Positions 15,831-37,934 of a DNA stretch of 64,000 bases are shown here, one piece after another. The DNA is from an uncultured Gammaproteobacteria bacterium (lineage in GTDB: Bacteria; Pseudomonadota; Gammaproteobacteria; Steroidobacterales; Steroidobacteraceae). The notes under the pieces were generated by a model. It was given only the letters and a program-made list of their open reading frames with translations, was not told the origin of the DNA and ran no database searches. The DNA lies in contig CAVPJJ010000003.1 of assembly GCA_963705405.1 (NCBI GenBank), forward strand, positions 96,760 to 160,759. The letters run 5' to 3'. The position numbers were made by a program, and so were the translations under genes. Every line of letters begins with the position of its first letter. Within the stretch, counting starts at the first letter, position 1.

Positions 15831-15867
15831 ATCAGTTTTCGGTCTTTACCGCCAAGCGAGGTCAGCG

Positions 15868-16404
15868 ATGAATGAACCACTCCAGCCGGGACTGACGAGA
15901 ACCGAACGCGTCTCGATCGACCGCGATCGCACGATCAGCTTCCTGGGCGACGATTGCCGCGTCTATTCGACGCCGAAGCTGCTGTACGACATCGAGATCG
16001 CCTGCCGCAACCTGCTGCTTGCGCACGGTGAGCCCGGCCGGGATTCGGTCGGCACGCGCATCGAGCTGGATCACCTCGCCGCGACGCTGCTCGGCATGTG
16101 GGCGGAGATCACGGTCAAGCTGACCGCGATCAACGGCAATGCAGTCACCTTCGAATTCTCCGCGCGGGACGCGATTGAGGACATCGCGCGTGGCCGGCAC
16201 AATCGGTTCATCGTGAGCCCGGATAAGACCGCACAACGGCTGCGGGCGAAGCTCGCGAAGGCAAAGGAGCTCGAGGCCGCCAAGGTCCTGAGCGGGCGAA
16301 CCAGTCCGCGCAGCCATTTCGCCGACTTCCTTGCGCGACGCGACCAGCTGGCCGAGAATCCGGCGGCGCGGGCCTTGGAAGAACAGGCCGTTGCCCGAGA
16401 GTGA
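15868..16404 (+). CDS. Hotdog-fold thioesterase-like protein with a charged C-terminal tail.
   Basis: Starting from the ATG at 15868: MNEPLQPGLTRTERVSIDRDRTISFLGDDCRVYSTPKLLYDIEIACRNLL..VTFEFSARD resembles fluoroacetyl-CoA-thioesterase-type hotdog proteins. Confidence 0.55.
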   Translation: MNEPLQPGLTRTERVSIDRDRTISFLGDDCRVYSTPKLLYDIEIACRNLLLAHGEPGRDSVGTRIELDHLAATLLGMWAEITVKLTAINGNAVTFEFSARDAIEDIARGRHNRFIVSPDKTAQRLRAKLAKAKELEAAKVLSGRTSPRSHFADFLARRDQLAENPAARALEEQAVARE

Positions 16405-16410
16405 CTTCAC

Positions 16411-16800
16411 ATGAACCGACGTCGTGGCAGTAGTCCGCCGAGGACTTTCTTCGCGTTCACGCGGCGATATCCGCAGATCGGCGAGGCCTGGGAGCTCCTG
16501 GGCGAGGCCGGCAATGCCGGTCCGCTCGATCCGAAGATGACTCGCCTGGTGAAACTCGGCATCCACATCGCCACGCGTTCCGAGGGCGGCACCCACGCGG
16601 CGGTGCGCAAGGCGCTGCTGGCGGGAGCGCGCCCGGAGGAAATCTACCAGGTGGTGGCGCTGGCAGCGGGCGCCCTGGGCCTGCCGAATGCGGTCGCCGC
16701 CTTTACCTGGGTCGATGAGGAACTGAGGAAGGCCGGCAAGAAGCGCTCCAGGCGCGCGCGCGCCGCATCGCCGCACACGGCGAGCGATGCCCGCTCCTGA
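16411..16800 (+). CDS. Carboxymuconolactone decarboxylase (AhpD-like) family protein.
   Basis: LDPKMTRLVKLGIHIATRSEGGTHAAVRKALLAGARPEEIYQVVALAA is typical of the CMD domain. Confidence 0.7.
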   Translation: MNRRRGSSPPRTFFAFTRRYPQIGEAWELLGEAGNAGPLDPKMTRLVKLGIHIATRSEGGTHAAVRKALLAGARPEEIYQVVALAAGALGLPNAVAAFTWVDEELRKAGKKRSRRARAASPHTASDARS

Positions 16801-17627
16801 TCCGCAATTCGAAACCGGCCGGGCAGACTGATCTGCCGACCAGCGTCGAGGTCCGCGTACAGCGCTGGCGCGATGAGGGAACCGCGCGCGCGACCGATGT
16901 GGTGGCGGAGGAATTGCCGGTCGCGCTGCGCTACCAGGGCACTCCCTACGTCGTGATGCTGGCGACACCGGCCGACCTCGAGGATCTCGCGATTGGTTTT
17001 ACGGTGAGCGAAGCGATCGTCGCCTCACCTGATGAGATCCGTCACGTGCAGCAACAGGCGACGGGCGACGCGTTCGAGGTCCACATCGACATCGCGCCGC
17101 CACGCTTCGCGGAACTGCTGCAGCGCCAGCGCAATCTCACGGGCCGCACCGGTTGCGGCCTGTGCGGCGCCGAGACCGTCGAGGGAGCGATATCGCCGGC
17201 CGCCGCCGGTGCGTGCCGGACTCTCCGTTTCCCTGGCGGCATTGCACGCGGCGCTCCTGGAACTCGCCGCGCGCCAGCCCCTGAACGAGCGCACGGCAGC
17301 GTCCACGCCGCGGCCTGGGTGCTGCCGGATGAGGGCATCCGCATCGTGCGCGAGGATGTCGGGCGCCACAACGCGCTCGACAAGCTGATCGGCGCGCTGA
17401 TCCAAAGTAAGGCCGACATCGCAAGTGGCTACGTCATCATCACCAGTCGCGCGAGCTATGAGATGGTCCAGAAAGCGGCGACCGTAGGTGTGCCGTTGCT
17501 GGTCGCGATTTCTGCGCCGACGGGGCTTGCGGTCCGGCTGGCCGAGACCTGCGGGCTTACGCTCGTAGGCTTTGCCCGCCCTGGCCAGCACGTGGTCTAC
17601 TCACACCCGCACCGGCTGCAAGCCTGA
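16787..17627 (+). pseudogene. fdhD: Formate dehydrogenase accessory sulfurtransferase FdhD. As written, there are three frame breaks near 16825, 17195 and 17298, and the last two compensate.
   Basis: The ATG at 16787 overlaps the CMD gene end (MPAPDPQFETGRAD, then a stop). The sequence continues in the ORF 16899..17627 frame (DLPTSVEVRVQRWRDEG..EELPVALRYQGTPYVVMLATPADLEDLAIGF..GRTGCGLCG..). A roughly 100-nt patch reads correctly only in the frame of ORF 17032..17388 (LSVSLAALHAALLELAARQPLNERT). The conserved EDVGRHNALDKLIGA and SRASYEMVQKAA motifs are present. Confidence 0.75.
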
Positions 17628-17666
17628 GAATTATCATGGCACGAATGGGGGCGGCCCGGACCGAAG

Positions 17667-19348
17667 GTGCTGATGCTCCGTACCTACGAATATCCGAAAT
17701 ACGAGTATCGCCAGCCGCCCGAGCAGAAGAGCGGCAATACCGGGCGCTACCCGGTCGTGGTCGTCGGCGCTGGTCCGGTCGGCCTGGCCGCCGCCATTGA
17801 TCTTGCACAGTCCGGCGTGTCCGTCATCGTGCTCGACGACGATGACACGGTGTCGGTCGGCTCGCGCGGAGTCTGCTATGCGAAGCGCACGCTGGAAATC
17901 CTCGATCGCATCGGCGTGGGCGATGCCAGTGTCGCGAAGGGTGTGAGCTGGAATGTCGGCCGGACCTTCTTTCGCGAGGAAGAAGTCTATAACTTCAAGC
18001 TGCTGTCGCAGCCCGATCACAAGCGACCGGGCATGATCAACCTGCAGCAGTATTACCTCGAGGAGTACGAGGTCAGGCGCGCCCGCGAGCTGGCGAATCT
18101 GGACCTGCGCTTTCGTCAACAAGGTCACGTTGGCGACGCCGCGGGACGACGGCGCGGTCCTGCAGGTCGAGACGCCGGACGGCGGCTACACGCTGCAGGC
18201 CGACTGGTTGATCGTCGCCGACGGCGCGCGCAGCAATATCCGCTGCATGCTGGAACTGGAGGTCGAGGGCAAGGTCTTTACCGACCGTTTTCTGATCGCC
18301 GATGTCCTCATGAAGGCCGATTTCCCGACCGAGAGGCTGGTTCTGGTTCGATCCGCCATTCCATCCGGGCCAGTCCGTGCTGCTGCATCGCCAGGCCGAC
18401 AATGTGTGGCGCATCGATTTCCAGCTCGGCTGGCAGGCGGATCCCGAACAGGAGAGGAAGCCAGAGAAGGTCATTCCGCGGATCAAGGCGATGCTCGGCG
18501 CCGACCGCGAGTTCGAACTTGAATGGGTCAGCGTCTACACGTTTCAGTGCCGCCGCATGGCGGACTTCCGCCATGGTCGCGTGCTGTTCGCCGGCGATGC
18601 CGCGCACCAGGTATCGCCTTTTGGCGCGCGCGGCGCCAATTCCGGCATCCAGGATGCCGACAACCTGTGCTGGAAGCTGAAGCTCGTGATGGAGGGCCGG
18701 GCGCCGGATGCGCTACTCGATACCTACTCGGAAGAACGCGGCATCGCGGCCGACGAGAACATCCTGAATTCCAGCCGTTCGACCGACTTCATGACGCCGA
18801 AGTCAGCGACGTCGCTGACTTTCCGCAACGCCGTGCTGGGACTGGCCGGGGATCACGCCTTCGCGCGCGCACTGGTGAATTCGGGCCGTCTGTCGGTGCC
18901 GTCCTTCCTCACCGGGTCGCGCCTCAACACGCCGGACGTCGCCGCATTCGCCGGCGACATGGAGCCCGGTGCGCCGATGGACGATGCGCCGATCGAGGAG
19001 GATGGCAAGGTCGGCTGGCTGCTGGATCGCGTCGGCAACCGTTTCATGGCGCTGGTATTTGTCGACGACCCGGCAGCCGTCGGGCCGGCCCAGGCGCGCG
19101 CGATGGCTGCACTGGCCGACGCGCCAATCCCGGTTGAGGCCGTGCTCGTGTCACCAATGGGAGGCGCCGGTCCGCAGAAACTGCGAGTGTGGCGGGATCG
19201 CGTTGGCCGCTACGCCGAGCGTTACGACACCCGCACCGGCACGACCTACCTGGTTCGCCCCGACCAGCATGTTGCCGCGAGGTGGCGAGCGTTCGACGCG
19301 CAAGCTGTGCGGGCTTCGCTGGCGCGTGCGACCCGCAACACCGAATAG
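17667..19348 (+). pseudogene. FAD-dependent aromatic-ring monooxygenase (MhpA / PheA-TfdB family). As written, there are two frame breaks near 18120 and 18350.
   Basis: It has the VVVVGAGPVGLAAAIDL (GxGxxG) motif. It continues in ORF 18130..18522 (YTLQADWLIVADGARSNIR) and ORF 18377..19348 (VLFAGDAAHQVSPFGARGANSGIQDADNLCWKL). The total is about 560 codons. Confidence 0.8.
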
Positions 19349-19362
19349 TGAGGAGCAGCGAG

Positions 19363-19587
19363 ATGTCCCTGAAGCTGGAGCCGAATTTCTACGAACCGGG
19401 CAAGCGCTATATCCGCGCCTTCACGCCCGGGGACGACTTCTACGAGAGCCTGATCGAGACTCACCGCGACCTGAGCGACGAACAGAGCGCAATAGTCAAC
19501 GCCCGGCTGATCCTGCTGCTGGCCAATCACATCGGCGACATCGCCGTGCTGCGCGAAGCCATGCAGATCGCCCGCGCCGGCGTTTAA
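19363..19587 (+). CDS. DUF2783-like small protein, a type often found next to MhpA-type monooxygenases.
   Basis: It is 74 aa, starting at the ATG at 19363 with a GAGGAG ribosome-binding site: MSLKLEPNFYEPGKRYIRAFTPGDDFYESLIETHRDLSDEQSAIVNARLILLLANHIGD. Confidence 0.5.
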   Translation: MSLKLEPNFYEPGKRYIRAFTPGDDFYESLIETHRDLSDEQSAIVNARLILLLANHIGDIAVLREAMQIARAGV

Positions 19588-19638
19588 GGCACGCGCGCCG
19601 GATGCACGACGGCAGCTGCGCTGGAGAATAAGAGCTTT

Positions 19639-20880
19639 GTGAAGCCCGCTACTCCGCGACAGCGCTTGACAGCTCCGACACTCAGGCTTGGAGCATTGCT
19701 GACCACGCTGGTCGCGCTCGGGCCGCTCTCCACCGACCTCTACATCCCGTCGCTGCCGACACTGATCGAAGTGTTTCGCACCGATGCGGCGCGCGTCCAG
19801 CTGACGCTGTCCGTATTCCTTGCGGGCTTTGCCGTCGCGCAGCTGGCCTATGGTGCGCTGTCTGATCGCGTCGGGCGACGACCGATCATGCTCGCGGGGC
19901 TCGCGATCTTCTTCCTGGCGTCGGTCGGCTGCGCTTTCGCCACCAGCATCAATCAGCTGATCGTCGCCCGTTTCGCGCAGGCGATCGGCGCCTGTGCCGG
20001 ACCGGTACTTGGGCGCGCGATCGTCCGCGACGTCTGGGGGCCAATCAAGGCGGCCCGTGCCCTGGCCTACCTGGGCGGCGCAATGGCGCTGGCGCCTCTG
20101 GTCGCTCCGGTCCTCGGCGGCGCGCTGACCGTCTGGTTTGGCTGGCAGTCCAACTTCGCGCTGCTGGCGTCGTTCTCCGGTGTGCAACTGGTGGTGGTCT
20201 GGCGTTGGCTGGGCGAGAGCAACGTGTATCCGGATGCGACGGCGACCCGCGTCGGCCGCATGCTGATGAATTTCCGGATCCTGCTGGCAGATCGAGGCTA
20301 TCTCGGCTGTCTTCTGGCGCTGGCGTGGTCGTACAGCGCGCTGTTCGCCTTCATTGCCGGGTCGTCCTTCGTGTTGATCGGGAGGTACGGGCTTTCGCCG
20401 GCCGTCTACGGCATGTGCTTCGGGTTTGTTGTCGCCGGCTACATCGCCGGTACGCAGCTTGCCGGCTGGCTCGTGCCCCGGCGCGGCCCCGACTGGTTGC
20501 TGCGGTCCGGCGCCTGGCTGGGGGCATTCGCCGGGGCGGCGATGCTTGGCCTCGATCTTGCCGGTGTCCGCCATCTCGCCGCAGTGCTGGCGCCGATGTT
20601 CGTCGTCACCGTGTCGATCGGGGTGGTGATGCCGAACGCCACCGCGCGGGCGCTGGCGCCGTACCCGAAGATGACTGGTGCCGCGTCGGCTCTGATGGGC
20701 TTCTCGCAGATGAGCGTAGCGGCTCTGATTGGCATCGTCGTTGGCCATGGCGTCGAGAGCAACGCAACGGTCATGCCGATGACGATCGCAGCGTGTTGCG
20801 CGCTGGTGCCTTGTAGCTATCTTGCGCTGGTTCGCCGCGGTGACTCACATGGCGGCACGGATGCGTATCTCATGCGCTGA
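19639..20880 (+). CDS. MFS transporter, Bcr/CflA subfamily.
   Basis: It has 12-TM hydrophobicity and the motif GALSDRVGRRPIML between TM2 and TM3. It is 413 aa. Confidence 0.85.
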   Translation: MKPATPRQRLTAPTLRLGALLTTLVALGPLSTDLYIPSLPTLIEVFRTDAARVQLTLSVFLAGFAVAQLAYGALSDRVGRRPIMLAGLAIFFLASVGCAFATSINQLIVARFAQAIGACAGPVLGRAIVRDVWGPIKAARALAYLGGAMALAPLVAPVLGGALTVWFGWQSNFALLASFSGVQLVVVWRWLGESNVYPDATATRVGRMLMNFRILLADRGYLGCLLALAWSYSALFAFIAGSSFVLIGRYGLSPAVYGMCFGFVVAGYIAGTQLAGWLVPRRGPDWLLRSGAWLGAFAGAAMLGLDLAGVRHLAAVLAPMFVVTVSIGVVMPNATARALAPYPKMTGAASALMGFSQMSVAALIGIVVGHGVESNATVMPMTIAACCALVPCSYLALVRRGDSHGGTDAYLMR

Positions 20881-21550
20881 CGGCTCCATGCACCGCGCCG
20901 GCGTCGGCCCGCCTGACGGTTGCCAGGTAAACCAGTGCCCGTGCGCAGGCGAACGAGTGACCCGACAGGTTTGCCTTGCGCGGCACAGATCCGAGATCCC
21001 GCGGCCGTCCGGGGGCACGCAGCCGCCACGGGCCGTCGCGTAGCACTTCTCCGAACTCGAGCGCATCGTCGGCCGTGACGGCGTAGACGCCGGGCAACGA
21101 CGCGGGCAACCAGCCGGGCCGGTCGGGCTGCTCCGACGCCACGAGTACGCAGCCCGACTCGATGACGGCAGCGCAGGCAGCGGCCAGCACCTCGTCCCCC
21201 GGGCCCGGAGGAACACCGAGGCTCAGGTTAACGAAGTCGCAGCCCTCGGCTGCGGCCCGCAGGATTCCCCTGGCGACGAGCGAGGGATAGGTGGCCTCTG
21301 CGACGCCGAACACCCGCACCGAAAATATCACCGCGTCGGGAAACGCCTCGCGGATGATTCCGGCCACGGCCGTCCCATGACCAACAGGGTCGGAGAAGTC
21401 CGCGTCCTCGCGAACCAGCCTGTCCGGTCCCAGGTACAGGCGGCAGCCCGTCACGCTTCCCCGCACGTGGGAATGCCATGGATTCACGCCGGTGTCGACG
21501 ATTCCGATGCGACGAGCCGACAGCAAATCCCGACCCAAGCGACGCTCCAT
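20870..21550 (-). CDS. qhpE: Small subtilisin-like (S8) serine protease, QhpE-like leader peptidase of the quinohemoprotein amine dehydrogenase gamma subunit.
   Basis: The catalytic triad context is IVDTGV (Asp), HGTAVAG (His) and SGHSFA (Ser). It is only 226 aa and is the last gene of the qhp operon. Confidence 0.7.
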   Translation of the reverse strand: MERRLGRDLLSARRIGIVDTGVNPWHSHVRGSVTGCRLYLGPDRLVREDADFSDPVGHGTAVAGIIREAFPDAVIFSVRVFGVAEATYPSLVARGILRAAAEGCDFVNLSLGVPPGPGDEVLAAACAAVIESGCVLVASEQPDRPGWLPASLPGVYAVTADDALEFGEVLRDGPWRLRAPGRPRDLGSVPRKANLSGHSFACARALVYLATVRRADAGAVHGAVSA

Positions 21551-21570
21551 TGAAGAATTCTGCGAAATGG

Positions 21571-23343
21571 TCAGTTGCCGCGGTCGATGCCGGGCGTCGC
21601 CGCGAAAGTCGTGACGCCGCGACTAAAATGATCCGGCATCAGCAGCGAGCCGAATTGCTCCGCAGCAACCGCAACAAAGCGGCCTGCATGCAGGAGCATG
21701 AGCCGGTCGAAGTCCGTGAGACCCACAGGCCGGTGGGAGATGACGAGCGCGGTGCAATCAGGAAATGCTTCCCATAGATGCTGTCGGATCCGGGCCTCGG
21801 TCTCCAGGTCGAGACCGGAGAAAGCCTCGTCGAGCACCAGGATCCGGGGCTTGCGCAAGAACAGGCGTGCAAGGCCCAGCCGCTGCCGCTGGCCGTCGGA
21901 GAGCGCGAGCCCACGGCCACCGACGACGGTGGCGTAACCGTCGGGCAGGTTATTGATGAAGGTATCGGCCTCGGCCAGCGCGGCGGCCCGATCGAGGTCG
22001 GCGCGGGTCGTTCCGGGATTGCCGTAACGAAGATTTTCTTCCACGGAGGCGTGCAGCAGGAACGGTTCGGCGCCCGCATACCCGATCAGATCCCGGTCAT
22101 CCACCGAACGCCTGCGGTGCGCTGGCCGGCCGTCGATGTGAACGGAGCCTTCGGTGGGCTGCCGCAGGCCGAAAAGCAGGTGTATCAGCGTGGACTTGCC
22201 TGCACCCGAAGCGCCAAACAGGCCTACGCGCTCGCCCCGATCGATATGGAGGTTCGCACCCCGGAATACCGGCGGCTTCCCCGGGTAGGCAAATGTCAGG
22301 TCGCGCAACACGATGGCGTCATTGTCGGCGGCAGTCATCGCAACATCGACAGCCGGTGCCGCAGCGCTGTCGTCTGGACCGAAGACCTCGACCACCCGGG
22401 CGAAGCTCACCCGCGCCTCCTGGAGATTTCGGACGAGACCGAGTAATCCCTGGGCCGGCGCGAAGAGGCGTCCCTGGTAGAGCACAAAGGCGACGAACGT
22501 GCCGAGGCTGATCGTACCGGCCTCGAGCAGCCTGCCACCGAGGAGGTAGATCCACGCCAGCGCAAGCGTGAGCAGCAGGCCCGGCGCGCCGGTCGACATG
22601 GAGTCGAGCACCTGGAAGCCAACAACCTCGCGGTTAAGCCGTTCGCTCGCGGCAGCGAGTCGTTGCTGCTCCTCGCCCTCGGTGCGGTGAAAGCGAATCG
22701 CGCGCAGTGCGGCGATGCGCTCCGACAGGAAGTGGGAAAGGTCGGCCACAGCCTCGCGCACGCTGCGGCTTCTTTCCTCGATGGAGCGGCGAAATGCGGT
22801 CGTAGCGAGCAGCGCGAGGAGCAGGCCGAGAAAACTCCACAGCGCCAGGGTCGGCGACAGGCTGAAGGTGATGACCGCCGCCACGGCCAGGAAAAGAACG
22901 TTCTGCAGTGCTCCGAGTACGCCGTCGACCAGCAGGGTCTGAATTCGCGGCAGGTCGGTGCCGAAGCGCGTGAGGAGATCCCCGTGGCGGATGGGCTCCA
23001 GCGTCGCGAGCGGCCCGTTCAGGCAGCGCTCAAAAAGCGACGATCGCAGCTCGCCCAACAGGTCCGCCGAAAGGCGCGCGTGGACGCGGCGTGACAGTGT
23101 CGCAAGCAGCAGGTCGAGGACTGCCAGGACCAGCAGTACCGCGGCGATCTTCGGGATCACGGTGAAGTCGCCGCGGCTTGCCACCGCGTCCACGAACGCC
23201 TTGCCCAGCAGCGGTGTAGAGAGCGACACGGCTGCGCCTGCGAGCCCCAGGGCGAGGATGGCGGCGAGGCTGCCCCGCTTGCCTGACAGATGGCGCGCGA
23301 ACCGCAGGAGGTCTTTCAACACGAGCCTGGTTCGCCGGCCCAT
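21571..23343 (-). CDS. qhpF: ABC exporter (fused permease-ATPase), QhpF-like. A GTG at 23322 is an alternative start.
   Basis: It has an N-terminal 6-TM domain, Walker A GASGAGKST, signature LSDGQRQR and Walker B ILVLDEAFSGLD. Its start overlaps the end of the upstream U32 gene. Confidence 0.8.
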   Translation of the reverse strand: MGRRTRLVLKDLLRFARHLSGKRGSLAAILALGLAGAAVSLSTPLLGKAFVDAVASRGDFTVIPKIAAVLLVLAVLDLLLATLSRRVHARLSADLLGELRSSLFERCLNGPLATLEPIRHGDLLTRFGTDLPRIQTLLVDGVLGALQNVLFLAVAAVITFSLSPTLALWSFLGLLLALLATTAFRRSIEERSRSVREAVADLSHFLSERIAALRAIRFHRTEGEEQQRLAAASERLNREVVGFQVLDSMSTGAPGLLLTLALAWIYLLGGRLLEAGTISLGTFVAFVLYQGRLFAPAQGLLGLVRNLQEARVSFARVVEVFGPDDSAAAPAVDVAMTAADNDAIVLRDLTFAYPGKPPVFRGANLHIDRGERVGLFGASGAGKSTLIHLLFGLRQPTEGSVHIDGRPAHRRRSVDDRDLIGYAGAEPFLLHASVEENLRYGNPGTTRADLDRAAALAEADTFINNLPDGYATVVGGRGLALSDGQRQRLGLARLFLRKPRILVLDEAFSGLDLETEARIRQHLWEAFPDCTALVISHRPVGLTDFDRLMLLHAGRFVAVAAEQFGSLLMPDHFSRGVTTFAATPGIDRGN

Positions 23344-24272
23344 ACGTCCGGGTAATAGCAGAGGTGGGCGTTCTCGCAGAGCTCGGGAGCTCCCCGCATG
23401 GACACCACGGACGCACGAATGTCATCGGGGCCGGCACCGCGCTCGGCGTGCTTCAGCACGACGGCGGCCAGCCGCACCGATGCGGTCTTGCGTGCGAGTG
23501 ACGCCTCGCGACCGACCACCTTCAGGCTCGCAACGCCGATGCGAGCCAGGCGGGGCAGGGCGCACAGACCGCAGGGGCCGAGCGTATAGCCCCGGCTCGT
23601 CTGGCAGCCGCAGTTGTTCAAGGTCCACTTCCAGAACTCGTAGCGCCTGTCGAGACGGCCGGATCTTGCCGCGAGGCGGTCGTCCATGCAGAAGGGGCCG
23701 AAGGCATGGGTGGTGGCGCAGATTCCTTCTTCGAAAACGCAGCCGTCGTTCAGCGCGAAAACCTCCCACTCGAGACCGGGAATCGCGGTTTCCTCGATCT
23801 CCCGCAAGGTCATGTGCCGGGGCAGGATCACACGCGACACGCCGAGGCTGCGGTAGAAGGCGGCGGCGCCGGGGTTGCGGCAAGTCGCGAGACTGGAGAC
23901 ATGCAGGCGTGGGCCGAGCCCTTGCTCGCACAGGGCCAGCAGGAGTTCCCATTCGGCGACGATGAGGGCGGCAACGCCGATCTCATCGAGAAGCAGCCTG
24001 CCGAACTCCACCAGGCGGGGCACGGCCCCCGCCGGATAGGAAGGCGAGTTGAGCGTCGCGTAGACCGGTCGTGGCTGCGCCAGGTCCACGATCCGGCGCA
24101 GGTCCTCGAGATCCGGAACGCCGGCGGACCTGGGGTTGCGGCGATGGACCCACGCTTGCCCGAAGGTTTCCTCCCAGCCGGGCGGGGTCAGGCCGCAATA
24201 GAACTCGTGGGCACCCTCGGCGAGGAGCGGCAGGACTTCCTCGGAGCTTCGCAGCGGCGCAAGGATCTTCAT
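23316..24272 (-). CDS. Peptidase-U32 family protein, UbiU-like (putative Fe-S, O2-independent hydroxylase component).
   Basis: MKILAPLRSSEEVLPLLAEGAHEFYCGL.., HVSSLATCRNPGAAAFYRSLGVSRVILPRHMTLREI, WEVFALNDGCVFEEGICA and ASLKVVGREAS parallel the conserved blocks of E. coli UbiU as I recall them. Several conserved Cys are present. An ATGA overlap links it to the upstream U32 gene. Confidence 0.7.
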   Translation of the reverse strand: MKILAPLRSSEEVLPLLAEGAHEFYCGLTPPGWEETFGQAWVHRRNPRSAGVPDLEDLRRIVDLAQPRPVYATLNSPSYPAGAVPRLVEFGRLLLDEIGVAALIVAEWELLLALCEQGLGPRLHVSSLATCRNPGAAAFYRSLGVSRVILPRHMTLREIEETAIPGLEWEVFALNDGCVFEEGICATTHAFGPFCMDDRLAARSGRLDRRYEFWKWTLNNCGCQTSRGYTLGPCGLCALPRLARIGVASLKVVGREASLARKTASVRLAAVVLKHAERGAGPDDIRASVVSMRGAPELCENAHLCYYPDVWAGEPGSC

Positions 24273-25111
24273 GGCGTGGCCGCCTCGTGAAGGACGACGC
24301 GGTCGGTATGAAGCAGCCACGCTTCGGCTGCCTCGGGCGGCAACTCATAGAAAGAGTGTGTTGCCGCCTCTCCACAGGGGCATCGGACAGTCATCGCGTT
24401 GGACCCGAATCGGGCCGGCCCGGCAAGGCCCGGGACAGCGGTCAGCAAGTGTCTTGGAAAAACCGCCACCCTCGGCGTAGAGGCGTGCCTTCAGCGGACA
24501 ACCGCGGCCCGAGGCGGCGAACGTGAAGGGCAGGTGAATGGCCCGGAGAAGTCCCACGCCCGTCTCGTCAGGTCCGTCACCGAGATAGCCGCCGTCGAGA
24601 TCCGCATCGCTTTCGAGCGCCGTGACGCCGAGGTCGGCCAGGAAGCCGCGCAGCCTCGCGTAGCGGGATGCTTCGTGGGTTGCATCGCCGACCGTTCGAT
24701 CGCGATAGGCCCGCGGGTCACGCAGTGACCGGTTCATCAGCCGGCCGGCGCGCCGAGGCAGCGAAGGGTAGAGATCGCGCAGGAGCCCAAGTATCCCCCA
24801 GTCATTGAACACAACCGCCGGTTCCTGGCCGCTCGCCGTGAGTCTGGCCAGCAGCCGACCCACGGTGCGCAGCCCTTCGGGCGTCACGATCGGCGTGAGC
24901 AGCGTGGGTTCGAGCTCAAGGTCGCGCGCCAGCGAGACAAAACGCCTCGGCCTCTTGAAAATCGGAGAGGCGGTCCTCGCAGAATTCCGTGCCGAAGTAC
25001 AGCGCCACGGTCGGAGCCGTCCGGTAGCAGACTGCGCCACGCGGCCGGGCACGCGTCCCGCAGATCGCGGGGCGGTTCGGCGGGGCTCGTCAGGCGAAGT
25101 CCGTATTCCAT
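24269..25111 (-). pseudogene. Peptidase-U32 family protein, UbiV-like. As written, there are three frame breaks near 25010, 24940 and 24352.
   Basis: The ATG at 25111 has a GGAG ribosome-binding site about 10 nt upstream (MEYGLRLTSPAEPPRDL..). It continues in a second frame (VALYFGTEFCEDRLSDFQEAEAF), then in the frame of ORF 24345..25052 (VSLARDLELEPTLLTPIV..AIHLPFTFAASGRGC..CPGPC..PLWRGGNTLF). It ends in ORF 24269..24469 (YELPPEAAEAWLLHTDRVVLHEAATP), whose stop overlaps the next ATG. Two of the breaks sit at A/T homopolymers (AAAA 24939-24942, AAA 24351-24353). Confidence 0.6.
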
Positions 25112-25146
25112 GCGTTTCTTCTCCGGCGGGAAATCGTGCGCCCGGG

Positions 25147-26151
25147 TCAGAAGCTGACCCGGCGGATATCCATGCCGTCAGAGGCCATCTGCAGCACCTT
25201 CAGCGCCTTCAGCGTCTTCGAGTCGTAGACAGTCACTGTGGATCCGCCACCTCCGGCATAGATTTTCTTGCCGTCGCCCGACACGTTGACGGCGTAGCAG
25301 GTGCCCTCCGCGATGGGCATCGACTCCAGGTACGTCTTTTCGACGAGGTCGATGACCGTGAGCTCGTCCATGACCGCGTAGGCCAGCTTCCTGTCGGGCG
25401 ACAACACCACCGAGTACGCCATCACCGGGTCGCCCTTCAGCGGGATTTCGCTGATTTCGCCGGTCTTCTGGTCGACCAGCATGAGTCCCATGAACTCGGG
25501 CGTGTAGTAGTTCATGCTCGCGATGCCGCCGTTGTCGAACGCGTAATCCCAGAACGGCAGGATGTTCATCTTCCTGTCGAACATCGGCACGGTCTCGGCG
25601 ATCTTCAGGTCGCGCCCGGTCGTATCGATCTTGTAGAGGTCCTGCGCGAAAGCGTAGAGCACCGTGCCGCCCTTGACACTGACGAGGTGTGTCACGCCCC
25701 AGGGCACCTCGACACTGCGCAGGAACCTGCCGGTCTCGAGCTCGAACTGGGCGACCACGGGCCCACCGATGATGACCTCTCCCCCGGCCGTCCTGCGGGA
25801 CATGAAGCCGCCATAGGCAGTCTTGCCATCGGGATCGAGCGCGAAGCCGAACATCACCCGGTCCCAGCCGTCATTGCTCAAATCGATTGTGGCCACGACC
25901 CGGTTCTGCGTCAGATCCACGGTGTGCACGAGATGACGGTTGGTGGCGACATACAGGAACTTCCGGTCGGCGCTGAGAGCTACCTCGCGGCTGGCACCGG
26001 TGATGGGAATGTCGGCCACGATGGCGTCGGTGTCGCCGTCGATCACCTGGATGATTTCATAGCCCAGATAGTAGAACCGCTCCCCGGCCGCGGCGCCCCC
26101 GACGTAGAGGATTGCGGCGAGGCCCACGAATAGCAGTGGCTGCCATCGCAT
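25147..26151 (-). CDS. qhpB: Quinohemoprotein amine dehydrogenase beta subunit (7-bladed beta-propeller).
   Basis: It has the signal peptide MRWQPLLFVGLAAILYVGGAAAG, is 334 aa, and shows a repetitive beta-strand pattern. It is positioned directly after qhpC with an AGGAGG ribosome-binding site. Confidence 0.75.
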   Translation of the reverse strand: MRWQPLLFVGLAAILYVGGAAAGERFYYLGYEIIQVIDGDTDAIVADIPITGASREVALSADRKFLYVATNRHLVHTVDLTQNRVVATIDLSNDGWDRVMFGFALDPDGKTAYGGFMSRRTAGGEVIIGGPVVAQFELETGRFLRSVEVPWGVTHLVSVKGGTVLYAFAQDLYKIDTTGRDLKIAETVPMFDRKMNILPFWDYAFDNGGIASMNYYTPEFMGLMLVDQKTGEISEIPLKGDPVMAYSVVLSPDRKLAYAVMDELTVIDLVEKTYLESMPIAEGTCYAVNVSGDGKKIYAGGGGSTVTVYDSKTLKALKVLQMASDGMDIRRVSF

Positions 26152-26160
26152 ATCGTCCTC

Positions 26161-26487
26161 CTATTCGTACTTCAGGTTGCGCCAGTCGCGCGCGATGTTC
26201 GGGCAGGCCACGTCGAAATCCGAATGATTCGTCAGGCCGTCCGGCACCTGGGCGGGCCACCAGCAGTCGCCGGCGCAGCCGTGGAAATCGCGGGCCGACG
26301 ACTGGCAATTGCCGATCGGATAGGTGGGCCGCGGGTTCGTTTCCCAGCCGGTGTCGAAGATCGTGGTGCAGCCCTGCGGCATCGCGGGAGGACCGCCGAG
26401 CGCCTCGGCCGTCTGCTCCTCGCCCTCTGCCAGACGCTCGATGGCGCGCGCCTTTTCGTTCAACGCGTCGATGATCTTCTTCTTCAT
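26161..26487 (-). CDS. qhpC: Quinohemoprotein amine dehydrogenase gamma subunit precursor, which carries the CTQ cofactor and thioether crosslinks.
   Basis: It is 108 aa with a charged leader, then the core GCTTIFDTGWE..CQSSARD..CAGDCWWPAQVPD. Spacings Cys40-Glu49, Cys61-Asp67 and Cys75-Asp83 match the known Cys-to-Asp/Glu thioether pairs. The Cys71/Trp77 pair matches the CTQ pair in the CxxxCWW motif. Confidence 0.9.
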   Translation of the reverse strand: MKKKIIDALNEKARAIERLAEGEEQTAEALGGPPAMPQGCTTIFDTGWETNPRPTYPIGNCQSSARDFHGCAGDCWWPAQVPDGLTNHSDFDVACPNIARDWRNLKYE

Positions 26488-26510
26488 GAGTTGCTCCTGT
26501 GAGGAGGGCC

Positions 26511-27926
26511 TCAGCCGTCAGTCCGTGTCTTCAGGAAGGTGAACACGGGGTTGTCGGGATCGCGGCAAAGGTTTGAATAAGTGCGAACGCCGATTTCCAG
26601 CCACCGCCGGATGAAATCGCACGATCCGCCGGGCGGCAGGCCAAGTTTGGTTTCCCGAAGGTGGTTCTCGTAATGGCAGCCCCCGGCACAGAGGCTGCGC
26701 GCCCAGCAAGCCCTGCACGCCTGCGCGCGAGTTGCCGCCTGGTCCGCGAGGCTCGCCCGGATCTTCGCGTGATCAACGCCAGCGTCCAGACTACCGACCT
26801 GGAACCCATCTTCTCCCGCGAGGCGATGGCACAGGAAGAACCTGCCGTCGGCATCCGCGGCCAGGTACCCGAGACCAGCGCCGCAGGGCGAGTCCTTCAC
26901 GCGGCCGATGTGGAGTCTGGCGAGCAGGTCGAGGAGGTTGGAAAAGGGCAGGACGCGACCCTCGGCGGCTTCTTGCAGAAATCGCCCGGCCAGCAGTGAA
27001 AAGCCGGCGAACAAGGCCTCGTCCTGCTCGGCAGTGGGCAGCAGCCCGGTCGTCACCGGGCTCACCGGTGCGATGCCGACCTCGAGGAATCCCAGGCCAA
27101 GCACGTGTCCGAAGACCTCGGGAATCCGCAGCCATTGCTCGGGCGTCAGGGTCACCCGGGCCGCGGGCGGCCTCAACGCGTGTGCGCGCATCAGCGCAAG
27201 CCCCTCCACGACATCGACGTAACTGCCGCGCCGCGTTCGGCCCGCGTAGCGGCGGTTGGCGTCGTGGATGTCGGGTGGGCCATCGATGCTGATGGTGATC
27301 CCGATACGGTGCTCACGCAGGAAAACGAGCAACGTCGGTGTGAACCGGGTTCCGTTGGTCGTGAGCGAGACGACCAGCTGTTTGCCCGCTTTTCTTGTCG
27401 CGTCCTCCGCTTCCAGAACCGCGGCCCGCAGGGCCGGCAGGTTCAGCAACGGTTCACCGCCGAAGAGGACGAGGGTGACCTGCTGGCGGTCGCCGGACGC
27501 TTCGACCAGGTGTTGCGCCGCTCGCCGCGCCAGTTCGGGGCGCATCAATCGCGATTTGCCGCCATACGAGCCGCCGCCCGCGTAGCAGTAGGTACAGCGC
27601 AGGTTGCACGCCTGGGCCACCTCGAGTACGAGCGTCCCAAGGGGAATATCGGCAGGGTCGATCGGTGCCGGCGCCGGCCGATGTTGCGATGTGGCCGGGA
27701 CCAGCACCAAGGCATCCCGTAACGCCTCGAGGACCTCCCGGTCCGGAGCGGGCGCCTCGCGCAAATCAAGAGTTTCCCGCTCCCGCCACCGCGCCAGGAC
27801 ATCCCGGGTCGACGCATCGAGCGCAAACAGGCTGGCGTGATCCGTGCCGAACAGAAGGGCCTTGCCGCCCGGCTCGGTGGCGGCCTCGAAGATCCGGTGA
27901 CCCGCCCAGGCGTAAATCCCGCTCAT
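26511..27926 (-). CDS. qhpD: Radical SAM/SPASM peptide maturase QhpD, which forms the thioether bonds in QhpC.
   Basis: It has the CNLRCTYC radical SAM motif and the C-terminal SPASM-type Cys cluster CRACWARSLCAGGCHYEN. An ATGA overlap links it to qhpA. It lies directly upstream of qhpC. Confidence 0.9.
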   Translation of the reverse strand: MSGIYAWAGHRIFEAATEPGGKALLFGTDHASLFALDASTRDVLARWRERETLDLREAPAPDREVLEALRDALVLVPATSQHRPAPAPIDPADIPLGTLVLEVAQACNLRCTYCYAGGGSYGGKSRLMRPELARRAAQHLVEASGDRQQVTLVLFGGEPLLNLPALRAAVLEAEDATRKAGKQLVVSLTTNGTRFTPTLLVFLREHRIGITISIDGPPDIHDANRRYAGRTRRGSYVDVVEGLALMRAHALRPPAARVTLTPEQWLRIPEVFGHVLGLGFLEVGIAPVSPVTTGLLPTAEQDEALFAGFSLLAGRFLQEAAEGRVLPFSNLLDLLARLHIGRVKDSPCGAGLGYLAADADGRFFLCHRLAGEDGFQVGSLDAGVDHAKIRASLADQAATRAQACRACWARSLCAGGCHYENHLRETKLGLPPGGSCDFIRRWLEIGVRTYSNLCRDPDNPVFTFLKTRTDG

Positions 27927-29479
27927 CGGATCCGTCCGATGAAGTCAGGCATGGTGATCGCCAGCTGCGCTTCGGCCGTGAAGGATTGTGTCCCCCGCGT
28001 GTACTGTGCCACGACCTTGACGAAGCCGCTGTTCTCGGCCGAGAAATTGCGCAGTGGGTTGGGACCGTAGGTGCCGACAGGCAGGTAGATGCCATTCGGC
28101 AGGATGCCACCGGCCCAGCGCAGGTCATCGTCGTCCACCCGTGTCGTTTCTTCGGCCAGCGTGAAGCTGGCAGGAACCGGCCCGAGGGCCACGCCGTCCG
28201 TGCCATCGTCGCCATTCGCGTAGGCAATCGCCTCGAACTGGACGCCTTCGGCCGGGTAGTGCAGTCCGCCGGACAAGCGCGCACGCCCCATGGCCGGCTT
28301 CACGACAATGCGGTCGATCCGTGACGCGAGTTTCACGGTCCCGGCATCGAGGCCTTTCACCTTCAGCCGGGCTTCGCCGGGCTGCGCAGCGTTGCTCAGG
28401 ACCTCGATGTCGAGCACGTCGGGCGCCACACGCCTGGCGCCGAGCACCTCGACCGATCCGCCGGCGAAGGACACGTCGCGCACCGTGACATCGGGCAGAT
28501 TCAGACCCTCGACGGTCAGCGTAGTCTTCTCGCCGGCGAGCAGAAATCCCGGCAGGATCCTTGCAATGATGGCGCCGTCACCCTTGCGCAGCCATCTGGC
28601 GCTGGAAGTGCGGAAGTTCGGAGCGGGGAAATGATTTTCGCCGCGGATTTCGTCGCCGGAAACCAGGTAAGCGCCATTTGCGGCAAATCCATTGTTCCTG
28701 GTCCGCGTGCGAAGCGCGTACCCGCCATACAGTGTGCCCTCGCCGTCGAAGGTTTCGGAGGTGCCATCGGCATAAGCGAGGTGACCCGTGAGCTTGTACT
28801 CGGCATTGCCGACGTCCGAGATGCGGGCTTCGCCCCGGTAGGTTCCGCGACCCGGCTGGTAGCCGAACACGCCCCACACGCCGTCAAGCCGGACCTTCGG
28901 GGCCGACCACGCCTTGCCGTAAGGCAACTTGCCGTCCAGGTAGCTGAGCACCGCGTCGGCCTCCGAAATCCAGTGCATCTCGCGCATCTGCGCGATGACC
29001 GTGGGCACGACGAAGAGGTGGAAATCCCTGAGCTTCGCCCAGTGTCCCGCGGTCCTCCGGTACGAATAGATCTTGCCCGCGGTGTGGCACCGCACGCAGG
29101 TCGCGAACAGCCGTTCCTCGGCGCTGTCGGCGGGAACTTCCATCTGCTGGGAGTTGTGCCAGAGACTCAGGTAGGACACCTGAGCCTGCTCCTCCGGTGT
29201 GAGGATCTGGGTGGCACAAAGTTCTTTCAGGAGGGTGTCCATGTCTCCCTTCCCAAGAGGCATGCCGTGCAGCCGACTCATCCGGTCGACGATGACCGTC
29301 CATTCCTCTGGCGTCGTTCGCAGGTCCTCCACGCGCGGAATCCTGCCGCTCGCTGCAGGGATATGACAGCCGCTGCACTTCCGCCACACCAGCGAATCCT
29401 GACTGAATGCCTGCACGCTGCCGGCCACGGCCAGCAGCGCCAGGCCGGTGGCGATTCCCATCATCTTGATGTATCGCAT
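27923..29479 (-). CDS. qhpA: Quinohemoprotein amine dehydrogenase alpha subunit (dihaem cytochrome c).
   Basis: Starting from the internal Met codon 11 of track ORF 27923..29509: MRYIKMMGIATGLALLAVAGSVQA is a signal peptide. It has two haem motifs, CSGCH and CVRCH, and a large C-terminal beta-rich region. Confidence 0.88.
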   Translation of the reverse strand: MRYIKMMGIATGLALLAVAGSVQAFSQDSLVWRKCSGCHIPAASGRIPRVEDLRTTPEEWTVIVDRMSRLHGMPLGKGDMDTLLKELCATQILTPEEQAQVSYLSLWHNSQQMEVPADSAEERLFATCVRCHTAGKIYSYRRTAGHWAKLRDFHLFVVPTVIAQMREMHWISEADAVLSYLDGKLPYGKAWSAPKVRLDGVWGVFGYQPGRGTYRGEARISDVGNAEYKLTGHLAYADGTSETFDGEGTLYGGYALRTRTRNNGFAANGAYLVSGDEIRGENHFPAPNFRTSSARWLRKGDGAIIARILPGFLLAGEKTTLTVEGLNLPDVTVRDVSFAGGSVEVLGARRVAPDVLDIEVLSNAAQPGEARLKVKGLDAGTVKLASRIDRIVVKPAMGRARLSGGLHYPAEGVQFEAIAYANGDDGTDGVALGPVPASFTLAEETTRVDDDDLRWAGGILPNGIYLPVGTYGPNPLRNFSAENSGFVKVVAQYTRGTQSFTAEAQLAITMPDFIGRIR

Positions 29480-29505
29480 CGTCGGTCCCTCTGAAGGGTC
29501 GCCAT

Positions 29506-30463
29506 TCACCCCTGCAGCCGTGCCCAGACCTCGCGGTCGCGTTCCATGGTCCAGATGTGAGGCCAGTCGACGCCGTCCAGCTCGTCCCAGAGCCGCTGCA
29601 CGTTGAAGGGCAGGCAGTGCTCGAAGATCGGCCAGCGGCCGAACTTCGGCGCAAGCTTCGCGTGAGTGGCCGCGAATGCGTCGCGCAGCGTCCCCTGCCG
29701 TCCGTGCACAGCGCCGACCTCGTCGATCATCCCGTGCAGGAATTCGCGCGTCTGCTCGATGGCGGCATCGCAGGCGGCGGTGCCCCGTGCGACTGCGCCA
29801 CGCCCGCCGACCAACGCCTCGGCCCGCAGCGCCTTGACCCGGTCGAGCGTGTCGCCCACCCAGTCGCGATGAAATGCATCGCCCGTGTAAAGCGCCGCCT
29901 GCGCCTCGACCAGGTCGCCGGCGAACAGCACCTTGTGCCGGTCGTACCAGGCGACGATGTCACCAGCCGTGTGGCCGCGGCCAAGGAACTGCAACTCGAG
30001 TTGACCGCGATCGCCGCCCAGTTCGATGGTCAGGCGGTCCCTGAAAGTGACTTGCGGCCAGGTGAGTCCCGGTATCGAGTCGGGCTCCTTGAAAAGACGC
30101 GGCATGCGGCCCAGCTCGCTCGCCCAGTCCTGCATTCCGCGTTCGGCGATGAGCCGGCGCGTCATCGCACTGCTGATGATGGTACTGGTGTCGAACGCGC
30201 TCGCGCCGAGCACGCGTACCGCGTGGTAGTGGGTGAGCACGAGATACTTGATCGGTTTGTCGGTGTGCGCGCGCAACTGGGCGATCCATTCGCGCGCGAC
30301 GACGGGTGTCGCCCGTGCCTCAATGCAGACGAGGAAAGTCCTCGCCCTCGATGGCGCCGACGTTGGGATCGCCCTCGGCGGTCAGCGCATAGACGCCGTC
30401 GGCCAGGATCTCGAGTGTCTCGGTCTTCGCCACAAGGTCCGCGGATGACGCGAAGGGCTTCAT
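29506..30463 (-). pseudogene. MBL-fold (metallo-beta-lactamase superfamily) protein. As written, there is one frame break near 30335, and the first metal motif is atypical.
   Basis: The ATG at 30463 gives MKPFASSADLVAKTETLEILADGVYALTAEGDPNVGAIEGEDF. It continues in the frame of ORF 29506..30276 (..VCIEARATPVVAREWIAQLRAHTDKPIKYLVLTHYHAVRVLG..GRGHTAGD..FAGD). THYHAVR replaces the canonical HxHxDH motif. Confidence 0.65.
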
Positions 30464-30478
30464 GCCTATCGTTTCTTG

Positions 30479-31897
30479 CTAGGCGGCGGCATTAATGACC
30501 TTGATGGACGTGAAGGCCTCGAGGCCCTCCTCGCCGAACTCGCGGCCAATGCCGGAACATTTGATGCCACCGAATGGAACGTGCGGCGCGATGTCGGCGT
30601 GCTTGTTGATGTAGACGGTGTCCGGCCTCGAGACGTGCGGCGACCGCGGACAGTTGCGCGCGGTCGGAGCCCCAGCACCGAGGCGGCGAGACCGAAATCA
30701 CCGCGATTGGCGCGTGCAATCGCGTCGTCGACGTCCCGGTAGCGGAGGATTGGCAACACCGGGCCGAACTGCTCTTCGTCCACGAGCCGGGTGCCGTCCT
30801 CGATCTCGGTCATGAGTGTCACGGGATAGAAGTAGCCGGGACCGTCTATCGGCTTCGCCACCGATCAGCGCCCGGGCTCCATGCCGCTTCGCGTCCTCGA
30901 CGAGTTCGACCACCTTGCGATACTGCCGCTCGTTCTGCAGCGGGCCGAGCAGGCTGGTCTCGACCATGCCGTCGCCCACCGGCACCTTGCGGGCGATGTC
31001 GGCCAGCGCGGCGCAGGTGCGATCGAACAGGCTGTCGTGCACGTACAGCCGCTTGAGGGCGGCGCAGGTCTGCCCTGAGTTGATGAACGCGCCCCAGAAC
31101 ATGCCTTCGGCGAGCTGCTCGACATTGGCGTCCGGCAGCACCAGGCCCGGGTCGTTGCCGCCGAGCTCCAGCGTCAGCGGCTTGAGCGTCGGCGCGGCGC
31201 TCGCCATGATTTTCTTGCCGGTCGGGATCGAGCCGGTGAAGATGATCTTGCCGATGCCCGGATGCTGGCTGAGCTTCGCGCCGAGCTCGTCGCCGCCGGC
31301 GATGACGTTGACGACGCCTGGCGGCAGTGCGGCGCTGATCAGCTCGATCATGCGCAGCGTGCTGAGTGGCGTGAATGGCGAGGGCTTGATGACCACCGTG
31401 TTGCCGGTGCGGATGGCTGGCGCGATGTGCCAGATGGCGATCAGCAGGGGCCAGTTCCAGGGCGTGATCGAGCCCACGACGCCGATTGGCACCCGGTGCA
31501 TTTCGATGTGGTTCTTCGGGCTGTCCTCCAGGACCTTGACCGGGAGGGACTGGGTCGCGGTAAATCCGGCCCAGGCCGCGCAACCGCCGAGCTCGAACTC
31601 CGAGCCGAGGCCCTTGAGCGGCTTGCCCTGTTCCTTGGTCAGCAGCACCGCGAGTTCCGGCGCGTTGTCGCCGAGGACCTTGGCGATTGCCTGGCAAGCG
31701 GACGCGCGGGCCGCATCATCCGAATTGCGCCAGCTGGCGAATGCCTTCCGGGCTGCGGCGATGGCCTGCTCGAGGTGGGTTTCGGCGCCCACCGGGCACA
31801 GGCCGACACCGCCGCCGTTGGCGGGGTTCCGGATCTCCTGATAGCTGTCGGCGCCGACTCGGCGCCCGCCGATGGTCATGTCGTACTTTTGGCTCAT
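30479..31897 (-). pseudogene. NAD(P)-dependent aldehyde dehydrogenase. As written, there are three frame breaks near 30864, 30650 and 30606.
   Basis: It starts MSQKYDMTIGGRRV. It has the FTGS motif, ELGGNDP, and the catalytic Cys in GQTCAALKR. The C-terminus can be followed through ORF 30466..30861 (DGPGYFYPVTLMTEIEDGTRLVDEEQFGPVLPILRY) and ORF 30492..30719 (SDRAQLSAVAARLEAG). It ends in a third frame (TVYINKHADIAPHVPFGGIKCSGIGREFGEEGLEAFTSIKVINAAA). Confidence 0.85.
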
Positions 31898-31999
31898 GGA
31901 TGCACTGCCTGTACGTGGTGTTTATGAGATAAGTCAGCGGTCGAATGTTGACATTAGGCAGACCCGGTCAAACAGGGTCTTGGCGCAATGTGCAGCGCG

Positions 32000-32009
32000 C
32001 TTGTACAAG
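32000..32009. promoter_or_regulatory. 10-bp palindrome CTTGTACAAG in the divergent region between the ALDH-qhp operon and the AraC-regulator gene.
   Basis: Read directly from the sequence. A related CTTG-GTA-CAAG occurs at about 33083..33093, upstream of the TonB-dependent receptor gene. An inverted repeat AGACCC-N9-GGGTCT lies at 31960..31980. Confidence 0.3.
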
Positions 32010-32125
32010 AGTGCAGGCACCTTGAAACGAACGCGGCGGACCTTGCCACCGGTAACAGCCGTACGAGCCCCCCGGGCCCGGCCTTAGTTGTCCATGAGCG
32101 CCGCGAGGCGCAAGATCGGGGCGGC

Positions 32126-37919: not shown

Positions 37920-37934
37920 CCGGGAGGTCAATCC

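Follow-up and report, generated by a model that had tools for sequence, protein, structure and literature searches.

The biogenesis of the protein-derived quinone cofactors cysteine tryptophylquinone (CTQ) and tryptophan tryptophylquinone (TTQ) is thought to require O2 or H2O2. In the quinohemoprotein amine dehydrogenase (QHNDH) system, the CTQ-precursor tryptophan of the cross-linked gamma subunit QhpC is dihydroxylated by the flavoprotein QhpG, which uses O2 and acts within a complex of QhpC, QhpD, and QhpG (PMC7876137). QhpG also has a non-catalytic role and promotes the cross-linking of QhpC by QhpD within the ternary complex (PMC7876137). The CTQ entries of a 2025 review of protein-derived cofactors are QhpG and QhpA only. 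Hydroxylation without O2 is known from ubiquinone synthesis, in which UbiU and UbiV, iron-sulfur (Fe-S) proteins of the U32 family, perform three ring hydroxylations with oxygen from prephenate and replace UbiI, UbiH, and UbiF, flavin enzymes that hydroxylate the aromatic ring at several positions (PMC10990095). Two other U32 proteins, RlhA and TrhP, are linked to the O2-independent hydroxylation of RNA (PMC10990095). Here we describe a qhp operon of an uncultured bacterium of the gammaproteobacterial family Steroidobacteraceae, located in a 64,000-nucleotide stretch of DNA (assembly GCA_963705405.1, contig CAVPJJ010000003.1, positions 96,760 to 160,759 of the forward strand), which we call the window. 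The operon contains two coupled genes, one encoding a U32 protein and the other a putative remote relative of it. The exclusive distribution of the pair and QhpG, the replacement of one by the other at the same operon position, and the family identity of the pair indicate that it is probably an O2-independent stand-in for QhpG, hydroxylating Trp77 of QhpC.

The two genes fill the interval between qhpB (25147-26151) and qhpF (21571-23343) on the minus strand, where the initial annotation had placed them. The first gene (24269-25111), referred to below as the V-like gene, encodes a cysteine-rich protein of 279 amino acids after frame correction. The second, the U32 gene (23316-24272), encodes a UbiU-like protein of 318 amino acids, a putative Fe-S subunit. 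The coupling of the two is visible directly in the sequence as an ATGA stop/start overlap at positions 24269-24272, and the same four-base overlap recurs across many lineages. The end of the U32 gene overlaps in turn with the start of qhpF. The GGAG ribosome-binding site that had been recognized ahead of position 25111 is present, but it is uncertain, as it holds an extra G in comparison with the orthologous locus L001. At position 25121, within this site, the window reads GCCGGAGAAG and L001 reads GCCGGAAAG, and the GGAG itself may be an assembly artefact. The N-termini of the two proteins, MEYGLRL in the V-like protein and MKILAPL in the U32 protein, do not have the look of signal peptides, as judged by eye.

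The hydroxylation step is still needed in this operon, since QhpC retains the CTQ residues Trp77, Cys71, Cys75, and Asp83. The CTQ tryptophan is Trp77 (codon 26257-26259) and its partner cysteine is Cys71. In an alignment of 20 diverse QhpC sequences, with identities down to 27%, Asp67, Cys75, Trp77, and Asp83 are invariant, and Cys61 and Cys71 are nearly so. The initial annotation had stated that the operon interval 20870-31897 lacks a qhpG-like gene for a monooxygenase dependent on flavin adenine dinucleotide (FAD). This held, and a QhpG-like open reading frame (ORF) is also absent from the rest of the 64-kb window. An iterated hidden Markov model of QhpG drifted onto the PRK08132-type FAD gene discussed next, and QhpG calls were therefore checked against the NCBIfam model NF049967 (cut-off 240 bits), which gave 255 bits for a positive control from locus L067. 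The FAD-dependent oxidoreductase gene at about 17628-19345 on the plus strand is the only one of the window that resembles an FAD monooxygenase gene. It lies outside the qhp system, is frame-broken in the window, and was considered as a hidden qhpG and rejected. Its orthologue in L001 matches PRK08132 with 855 bits, QhpG is not among the 25 best families of this orthologue (the weakest listed scores 63 bits), and the gene adjoins the operon only in the window, L001, and L002. The QhpG-like proteins of many qhp clusters from Acidobacteriaceae, such as L022 and L057, are short, at about 347 amino acids. The L057 protein (5664-6707) scores 59 bits against NF049967, has no Pfam match, and apparently lacks the canonical N-terminal GxGxxG motif.

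A scan with a QhpC profile through one genome per species of the Genome Taxonomy Database yielded more than 599 loci, of which the 80 closest were analyzed with 10-kb flanks. The complete pair of V-like and U32 genes is present in 21 of these loci, and one more (L009) is truncated inside the V-like gene. A QhpG-like gene, called with calibration against NF049967, occurs in 29 loci. No locus carries both the pair and a QhpG-like gene, an exclusivity that the initial annotation had proposed to test, and, leaving out L009, 29 loci carry neither. Many of the latter are short contigs or split clusters in which qhpE and qhpF are missing as well, and a frameshift-tolerant rescan of the loci with neither identified only L009 as a truncated pair-type locus. 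The pair and QhpG states are interleaved in the QhpD tree, which requires four to six parsimony switches in 30 of 30 bootstraps. Two gene orders were found for pair-type operons. The order qhpA-D-C-B-V-U-F-E, where V and U denote the V-like and U32 genes, is that of the window, Blastocatellia, and others, and the order qhpA-D-C-B-F-E-V-U occurs in the Alphaproteobacteria-type loci L024, L078, and L083. The second order is collinear with the qhpA-D-C-B-F-E-G order of L080, and in these operons the pair sits at the position of qhpG.

Synteny of the pair with qhp genes, a further check named in the initial annotation, was present in every relative examined, from Beta-, Gamma-, Delta-, and Alphaproteobacteria to Acidobacteriota. 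Approached from the U32 side, nine of nine contigs, whose U32 proteins are from 97% down to about 41% identical to that of the window, show the U32 gene immediately following a V-like gene within a qhp cluster. The position of qhpF is the same in all relatives compared. Locus L090 (6563-12502) contains a maturation-only module, qhpD-V-like-U32-qhpF-qhpE, with no qhpA, qhpB, or qhpC beside it, which adjoins a large nonribosomal peptide synthetase/polyketide synthase gene. The hosts of the pair include Desulfobacteraceae, Deferrisomatales, Magnetospirillaceae, Terasakiella sp. PR1, and metagenome-assembled genomes (MAGs) of Blastocatellia and Acetobacteraceae, and QhpG-type operons are found in Methyloversatilis, Leisingera, and many Acidobacteriaceae. 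Among 72,556 plasmids, tblastn found no match to the U32 protein.

The protein encoded by the U32 gene matches the Pfam family Peptidase_U32 (PF01136) (E-value 5e-25, 88.6 bits; cut-off 22.4 bits), and PF01136 is carried by all 120 U32 homologues among the matches listed. Databases label it 'putative protease' or 'collagenase-like'. The best NCBIfam match is UbiU (NF047963), with 50.2 bits over residues 97-186 only and a cut-off of 440 bits, followed by TrhP with 37 bits. By these scores, the protein is a member of the U32 family and an orthologue of no curated family. A profile of the 47-sequence U32 family aligned by hhalign with Escherichia coli UbiU over its full length with 99.6% probability (E-value 5e-24), and this alignment, together with the PF01136 match, agrees with the label 'UbiU-like' given to the gene initially. 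Cysteines 178, 185, 195, 234, and 237 are invariant among the 47 sequences, and cysteines 26, 299, and 305 are nearly so. The [4Fe-4S] ligands of UbiU are Cys169, Cys176, Cys193, and Cys232. The pattern C178-x6-C185-x9-C195-x38-C234 agrees with the UbiU ligands in its first and last spacings and differs in the middle one, and cluster binding is predicted for the U32 protein. Throughout the qhp-linked U32 subfamily, Cys26, Cys237, Cys299, and Cys305 and a C-terminal LCYYPDVW block are conserved as well, and they may mark an additional metal or cluster site that UbiU lacks. An AlphaFold2 model of the U32 protein (mean predicted local distance difference test score, pLDDT, of 79; predicted template modeling score of 0.81) has the TIM-barrel-like fold of solved U32 proteins, with low confidence in the cysteine-rich segment 177-213. 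A Foldseek search with this model returned the U32 peptidase Mk0906 (5d88) as the second match, with an E-value of 6.5e-6, amid CutC and other barrels.

The V-like protein appears to be related to the U32 family at a much greater distance. It contains the blocks VALYFGTEFCEDRL, HLPFTFAASGRGC, and CPGPC, which fall within the most conserved parts of its family. The family comprises at least 363 clusters without a precomputed Pfam domain, and its members, where named in the source, are called hypothetical proteins. Exactly four cysteines are invariant, in the arrangement C44...C204-x20-C225-x3-C229. This layout of one plus three resembles that of the UbiV ligands Cys39, Cys180, Cys193, and Cys197, and the last spacing is identical. 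Alignment of the V-like family with the partner U32 family by hhalign gave 87.6% probability and an E-value of 3.5e-6 over 151 columns, and six controls with reversed or unrelated families gave E-values of 0.045-0.78. The signal came only with deep alignments built from the genome loci; an earlier comparison of shallow alignments, with an effective number of sequences of 1.8, had given 1.7% probability. Because of the profile-profile match to the partner family and the cysteine pattern, the V-like protein is best regarded as a putative remote U32 homologue, for which 'UbiV-like' is a reasonable description and not a statement of family membership. A sequence profile search of the PDB with the V-like and U32 families returned no entry of the U32 family, and its only matches, to alanine racemase and beta-glucosidases, are due to chance.

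The pair resembles UbiU and UbiV (YhbU and YhbV of E. coli) in that two U32-type genes are adjacent, the larger protein is a full-length homologue of UbiU, and each system stands in for flavin monooxygenases (PMC10990095), the part of the pair being proposed. The two pairs differ in several respects. The qhp-linked proteins are not orthologous to UbiU and UbiV, and the V-like protein is without any curated match. The order of the genes is reversed, the surrounding genes are those of qhp clusters in all loci compared, and no homologue of UbiT, a lipid-binding SCP2 protein, was found in the window at an E-value of 1. The U32 protein has the four additional conserved cysteines and the LCYYPDVW block, and its proposed substrate is a peptidyl tryptophan rather than a prenylated phenol. 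TrhP and RlhA are each known as one protein acting alone and not as part of a dedicated pair. They share with the qhp-linked pair membership of the U32 superfamily and a macromolecular substrate, U34 of tRNA and C2501 of 23S rRNA, respectively, but they act on RNA and not on protein (PMC10990095), and the TrhP score of the U32 protein is far below the cut-off. With QhpG, the pair has in common the operon context, the relative position in some operons, the exclusive distribution, and presumably the same cytoplasmic step of the pathway prior to export. QhpG is an O2-using flavoprotein (PMC7876137) with one subunit. The pair, by contrast, comprises two Fe-S-type proteins with a predicted TIM-barrel fold that is unrelated to that of QhpG. 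Dedicated enzymes that oxygenate a peptidyl tryptophan for CTQ or TTQ are also known in LodB and GoxB, which are flavoproteins and relatives of QhpG, and in the dihaem enzyme MauG. Unlike the function proposed for the pair, all of these need O2 or H2O2, and none is related to it in sequence.

Based on these comparisons, a mechanism of CTQ maturation can be proposed. The two proteins would form a cytoplasmic heterodimer of U32-type Fe-S proteins, made up of a catalytic subunit resembling UbiU and a divergent partner resembling UbiV. As a QHNDH maturation factor, this heterodimer would substitute for QhpG, the flavin monooxygenase. Its substrate would be the QhpC precursor, probably at the stage when QhpD holds and cross-links it, before export by QhpF and removal of the leader by QhpE. 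The heterodimer would put the two oxygen atoms of CTQ onto Trp77 without O2. By analogy with UbiU and UbiV, the oxygen donor may be prephenate, and the [4Fe-4S] clusters may serve to withdraw electrons from the indole ring. The use of prephenate-derived oxygen without O2 is established for UbiU and UbiV only (PMC10990095). The initial annotation had suggested an anaerobic substitute for QhpG, and synteny, exclusion, the switching of states, the collinear gene order, and the likeness to UbiU all support this suggestion. We lean, with some hesitation, towards the fuller statement that a U32-type Fe-S heterodimer hydroxylates the QhpC tryptophan without O2 and has displaced QhpG, or been displaced by it, at least four times.

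Several observations weigh against the proposal that the pair hydroxylates QhpC in place of QhpG. The role assigned to both families is a prediction from sequence comparison. The U32 protein is not an orthologue of UbiU, given its 50 bits against the equivalog cut-off of 440. The V-like protein has no match in Pfam or NCBIfam at E-values up to 10, whether the corrected protein of the window or other family members (26 and 5 of them) are searched. In comparison with the single sequence of E. coli UbiV, hhalign gave an E-value of 0.15 for the V-like protein and 0.14 for its bona fide U32 partner, so that this comparison is powerless. The AlphaFold2 model of the V-like protein, computed from a 26-sequence alignment, is poor (pLDDT 43), and Foldseek returned nothing for it below an E-value of 0.1 and only insignificant barrel fragments. 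What stands of the original designation of the V-like gene as a UbiV-like member of the U32 family is the putative remote homology to its partner, and the match to a curated model fell away. The exclusion of the pair and QhpG has a Fisher p of 1.3e-5, with L009 counted as carrying neither, a value that overstates the independence of loci that are phylogenetically related. About 30 loci contain neither the pair nor QhpG, which shows that maturation genes can sit elsewhere, and a distant qhpG may therefore exist in genomes with the pair. The Blastocatellia and Acetobacteraceae are understood as typically aerobic groups, and the anaerobic rationale for the pair is not universal. The expectation that the pair tracks an anaerobic lifestyle is thus reflected in a tendency but not in a rule. 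Finally, the V-like gene of the window, as given, is out of frame.

The last point bears on the possibility that the V-like gene is a true pseudogene with three real frameshifts, so that the pair would be dead in this genome. The V-like region reads in three frames, and three +1 insertions shift the larger part of the gene out of its frame. The three frame breaks had been noticed in the initial annotation, and alignment with the intact 279-residue orthologues of two metagenome contigs, L001 and L002, whose DNA is 89% identical to that of the window, located them as single-base insertions near positions 25013, 24936, and 24351. The insertions are absent from every relative compared, and the V-like gene is intact in all of these. 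Their removal yields an ORF of 279 codons without stops, whose ratio of nonsynonymous to synonymous substitution rates (dN/dS) in comparison with L001 is 0.25, similar to those of the neighboring genes qhpF (0.25), qhpE (0.21), and qhpB (0.19). In the interval 13300-31900, compared with the 89%-identical contig L001, about 13 indels of one base are uncompensated, and almost all of these are insertions. Three are in the aldehyde dehydrogenase gene, one in the gene of the metallo-beta-lactamase (MBL)-fold hydrolase, three in the V-like gene, two in the FAD oxidoreductase gene, three in the FdhD gene, and one in the FlK gene, so that five genes other than the V-like gene are affected within 18 kb. 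The qhpA, qhpD, qhpC, qhpB, qhpF, and qhpE genes and the U32 gene are spared. Split or truncated ORFs of a similar kind occur in the related loci L006, L007, and L010 from MAGs of the MFD series, in line with assembly error. Two genes contain exactly three +1 insertions each, which restore the frame at the C-terminus. Since the corrected frame is free of stops, the dN/dS is 0.25, the neighboring genes contain similar indels, and the relatives are intact, we consider a pseudogene unlikely. The three breaks are most probably assembly errors rather than signs of gene death, and we read the locus as functional.

If the V-like and U32 genes are both functional, they could still be a qhp maturation factor with a different role, such as a scaffold or chaperone for QhpC and QhpD, an electron relay to the clusters of QhpD, a protease, or the enzyme that forms the Cys-Trp link, in which case the oxygen would be supplied by an unlinked enzyme or at a later step in the periplasm. 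QhpG itself has the non-catalytic function in cross-linking by QhpD (PMC7876137), and the approximately 30 qhpC loci with neither gene nearby indicate that unlinked factors exist. The U32 protein also differs from UbiU in having four conserved cysteines beyond the ligand set. However, the pair and QhpG strictly exclude each other and can take the same place in the operon, which argues that they act at one step of the pathway. The U32 family is named as a peptidase family, but most of the same clusters already include the leader peptidase QhpE, and the three U32 systems characterized to date, UbiU with UbiV, RlhA, and TrhP, are all tied to O2-independent hydroxylation and have no proteolytic role (PMC10990095). 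A different role in maturation is quite improbable on this evidence. It is exceedingly improbable that the two genes are ordinary ubiU and ubiV genes of anaerobic ubiquinone synthesis that lie beside qhp by chance. UbiU is the best NCBIfam match of the U32 gene, but at 50 bits the match is far below the cut-off of 440. UbiT was not found in the window in the search at an E-value of 1, and the order of the genes, V before U, is the reverse of ubiU-ubiV in E. coli. A chance location is excluded by synteny, as nine of nine subfamily members looked up and 21 of 21 complete pairs are inside qhp clusters. The replacement of QhpG by the pair in the hydroxylation of QhpC remains the reading that we prefer.

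The remaining genes identify the system to which the pair belongs. The minus strand carries one long operon with the order aldehyde dehydrogenase-MBL hydrolase-qhpA-qhpD-qhpC-qhpB-V-like-U32-qhpF-qhpE. It thus contains alpha, beta, and gamma subunits, a radical S-adenosylmethionine (SAM) maturase, an S8 peptidase, an ATP-binding cassette (ABC) exporter, and a QhpC with the CTQ residues. The dihaem alpha subunit QhpA (27923-29509) has two CxxCH motifs and scores 285 bits against TIGR03908 (QH_alpha; cut-off 274). QhpC (26161-26487), the gamma-subunit precursor and proposed substrate of the pair, matches QH_gamma with 120 bits (cut-off 50) and the Pfam family QH-AmDH_gamma. The alpha and gamma subunits are above the NCBIfam cut-offs, but the best matches of QhpD, the beta subunit, and QhpE are below them. 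The radical SAM/SPASM thioether maturase QhpD (26511-27926) carries the Pfam domain Radical_SAM and matches TIGR03906 best, with 328 bits and a cut-off of 453. The best match of the beta-propeller subunit QhpB is TIGR03907 (QH_beta), with 109 bits. The subtilisin-like leader peptidase QhpE (20870-21550) belongs to Peptidase_S8 and scores 123 bits against NF049966 (cut-off 165). The ABC exporter QhpF has the domains ABC_membrane and ABC_tran. By these scores, the operon is a divergent branch of the QHNDH system. Its upstream part encodes the aldehyde dehydrogenase (about 30466-31897, minus strand), which has three frame breaks and an intact orthologue of 471 amino acids in L001, and the MBL-fold hydrolase (from 29506, minus strand), which has one frame break, Lactamase_B and SoxH-related matches, and an intact L001 orthologue of 318 amino acids.

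Three genes on the plus strand are divergent from the operon. They encode a FeaR-like AraC-family regulator (31988-33076; 128 bits against NF007243 FeaR, cut-off 199), a TonB-dependent receptor (33197-35425), and the phenylacetate-CoA ligase PaaK (35428-36714; 692 bits). The regulator is probably the amine-responsive regulator of the qhp operon, and an AraC-family gene with the domains HTH_AraC and HTH_18 is at the equivalent place in L003. The regulator, the receptor, and PaaK suggest that the enzyme oxidizes an aromatic amine, for example 2-phenylethylamine, and the substrate of this QHNDH is likely an aromatic amine that feeds phenylacetyl-CoA metabolism. According to the title of Schmitt 2019, QHNDHs reportedly start anaerobic amine degradation in the denitrifier Aromatoleum aromaticum, and the title suggests a parallel with the role in aromatic amine oxidation considered here. 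It also suggests that CTQ formation without O2 occurs somewhere in nature. Aromatoleum is absent from the best 120 matches of the search for U32 homologues with a diverse profile. Of the hcr genes that had been reported from the window, hcrA and hcrB, encoding the alpha and beta subunits of 4-hydroxybenzoyl-CoA reductase, are confirmed at 4209-8193 on the plus strand. The alpha subunit is split over two ORFs, apparently because of another frame break. In L003, genes of the benzoyl-CoA reductase type adjoin the qhp operon.

A second tryptophylquinone enzyme cluster directly follows paaK on the plus strand (36603-40041). It begins with an ORF similar to the heavy subunit of methylamine or aromatic-amine dehydrogenase (36603-37919), which scores 192 bits against TIGR02658, below the cut-off. 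MauD (38162-39076) is above its cut-off with 190.5 bits, an ORF similar to TTQ small subunits (39104-39607) is below its cut-off with 156 bits, and a mono-haem ORF with a CxxCH motif follows (39343-40041). No dihaem MauG-like ORF for this TTQ cluster was found in the 64-kb window.

The initial annotation was not aware of an earlier description of this role, and we found no link of U32 proteins to QHNDH, QhpG, CTQ, or tryptophylquinone in the literature, where a passing mention in Schmitt 2019 is possible. NCBIfam models exist for QhpE and QhpG, but neither gene of the pair has one. It seems fairly probable that what is new here is the substrate class and the pathway of an O2-independent hydroxylase of the U32 family. 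We know of no literature that addresses the source of the two tryptophan oxygens without O2. The pair is a small, operon-encoded candidate for this O2-free step, occurs in hundreds of metagenomic clusters, and has at least one host in culture, Terasakiella sp. PR1. To our knowledge, most U32 subfamilies are uncharacterized, and in vitro hydroxylase activity has been demonstrated for no member. QhpC, which is short, defined, and can be followed by mass spectrometry, could be a tractable substrate for U32 chemistry. If the proposal is true, the pair would open a route to a protein-derived quinone cofactor that is independent of oxygen, the first of its kind, and QhpC would be the first protein substrate of the U32 hydroxylase family, extending its range beyond lipids and RNA.

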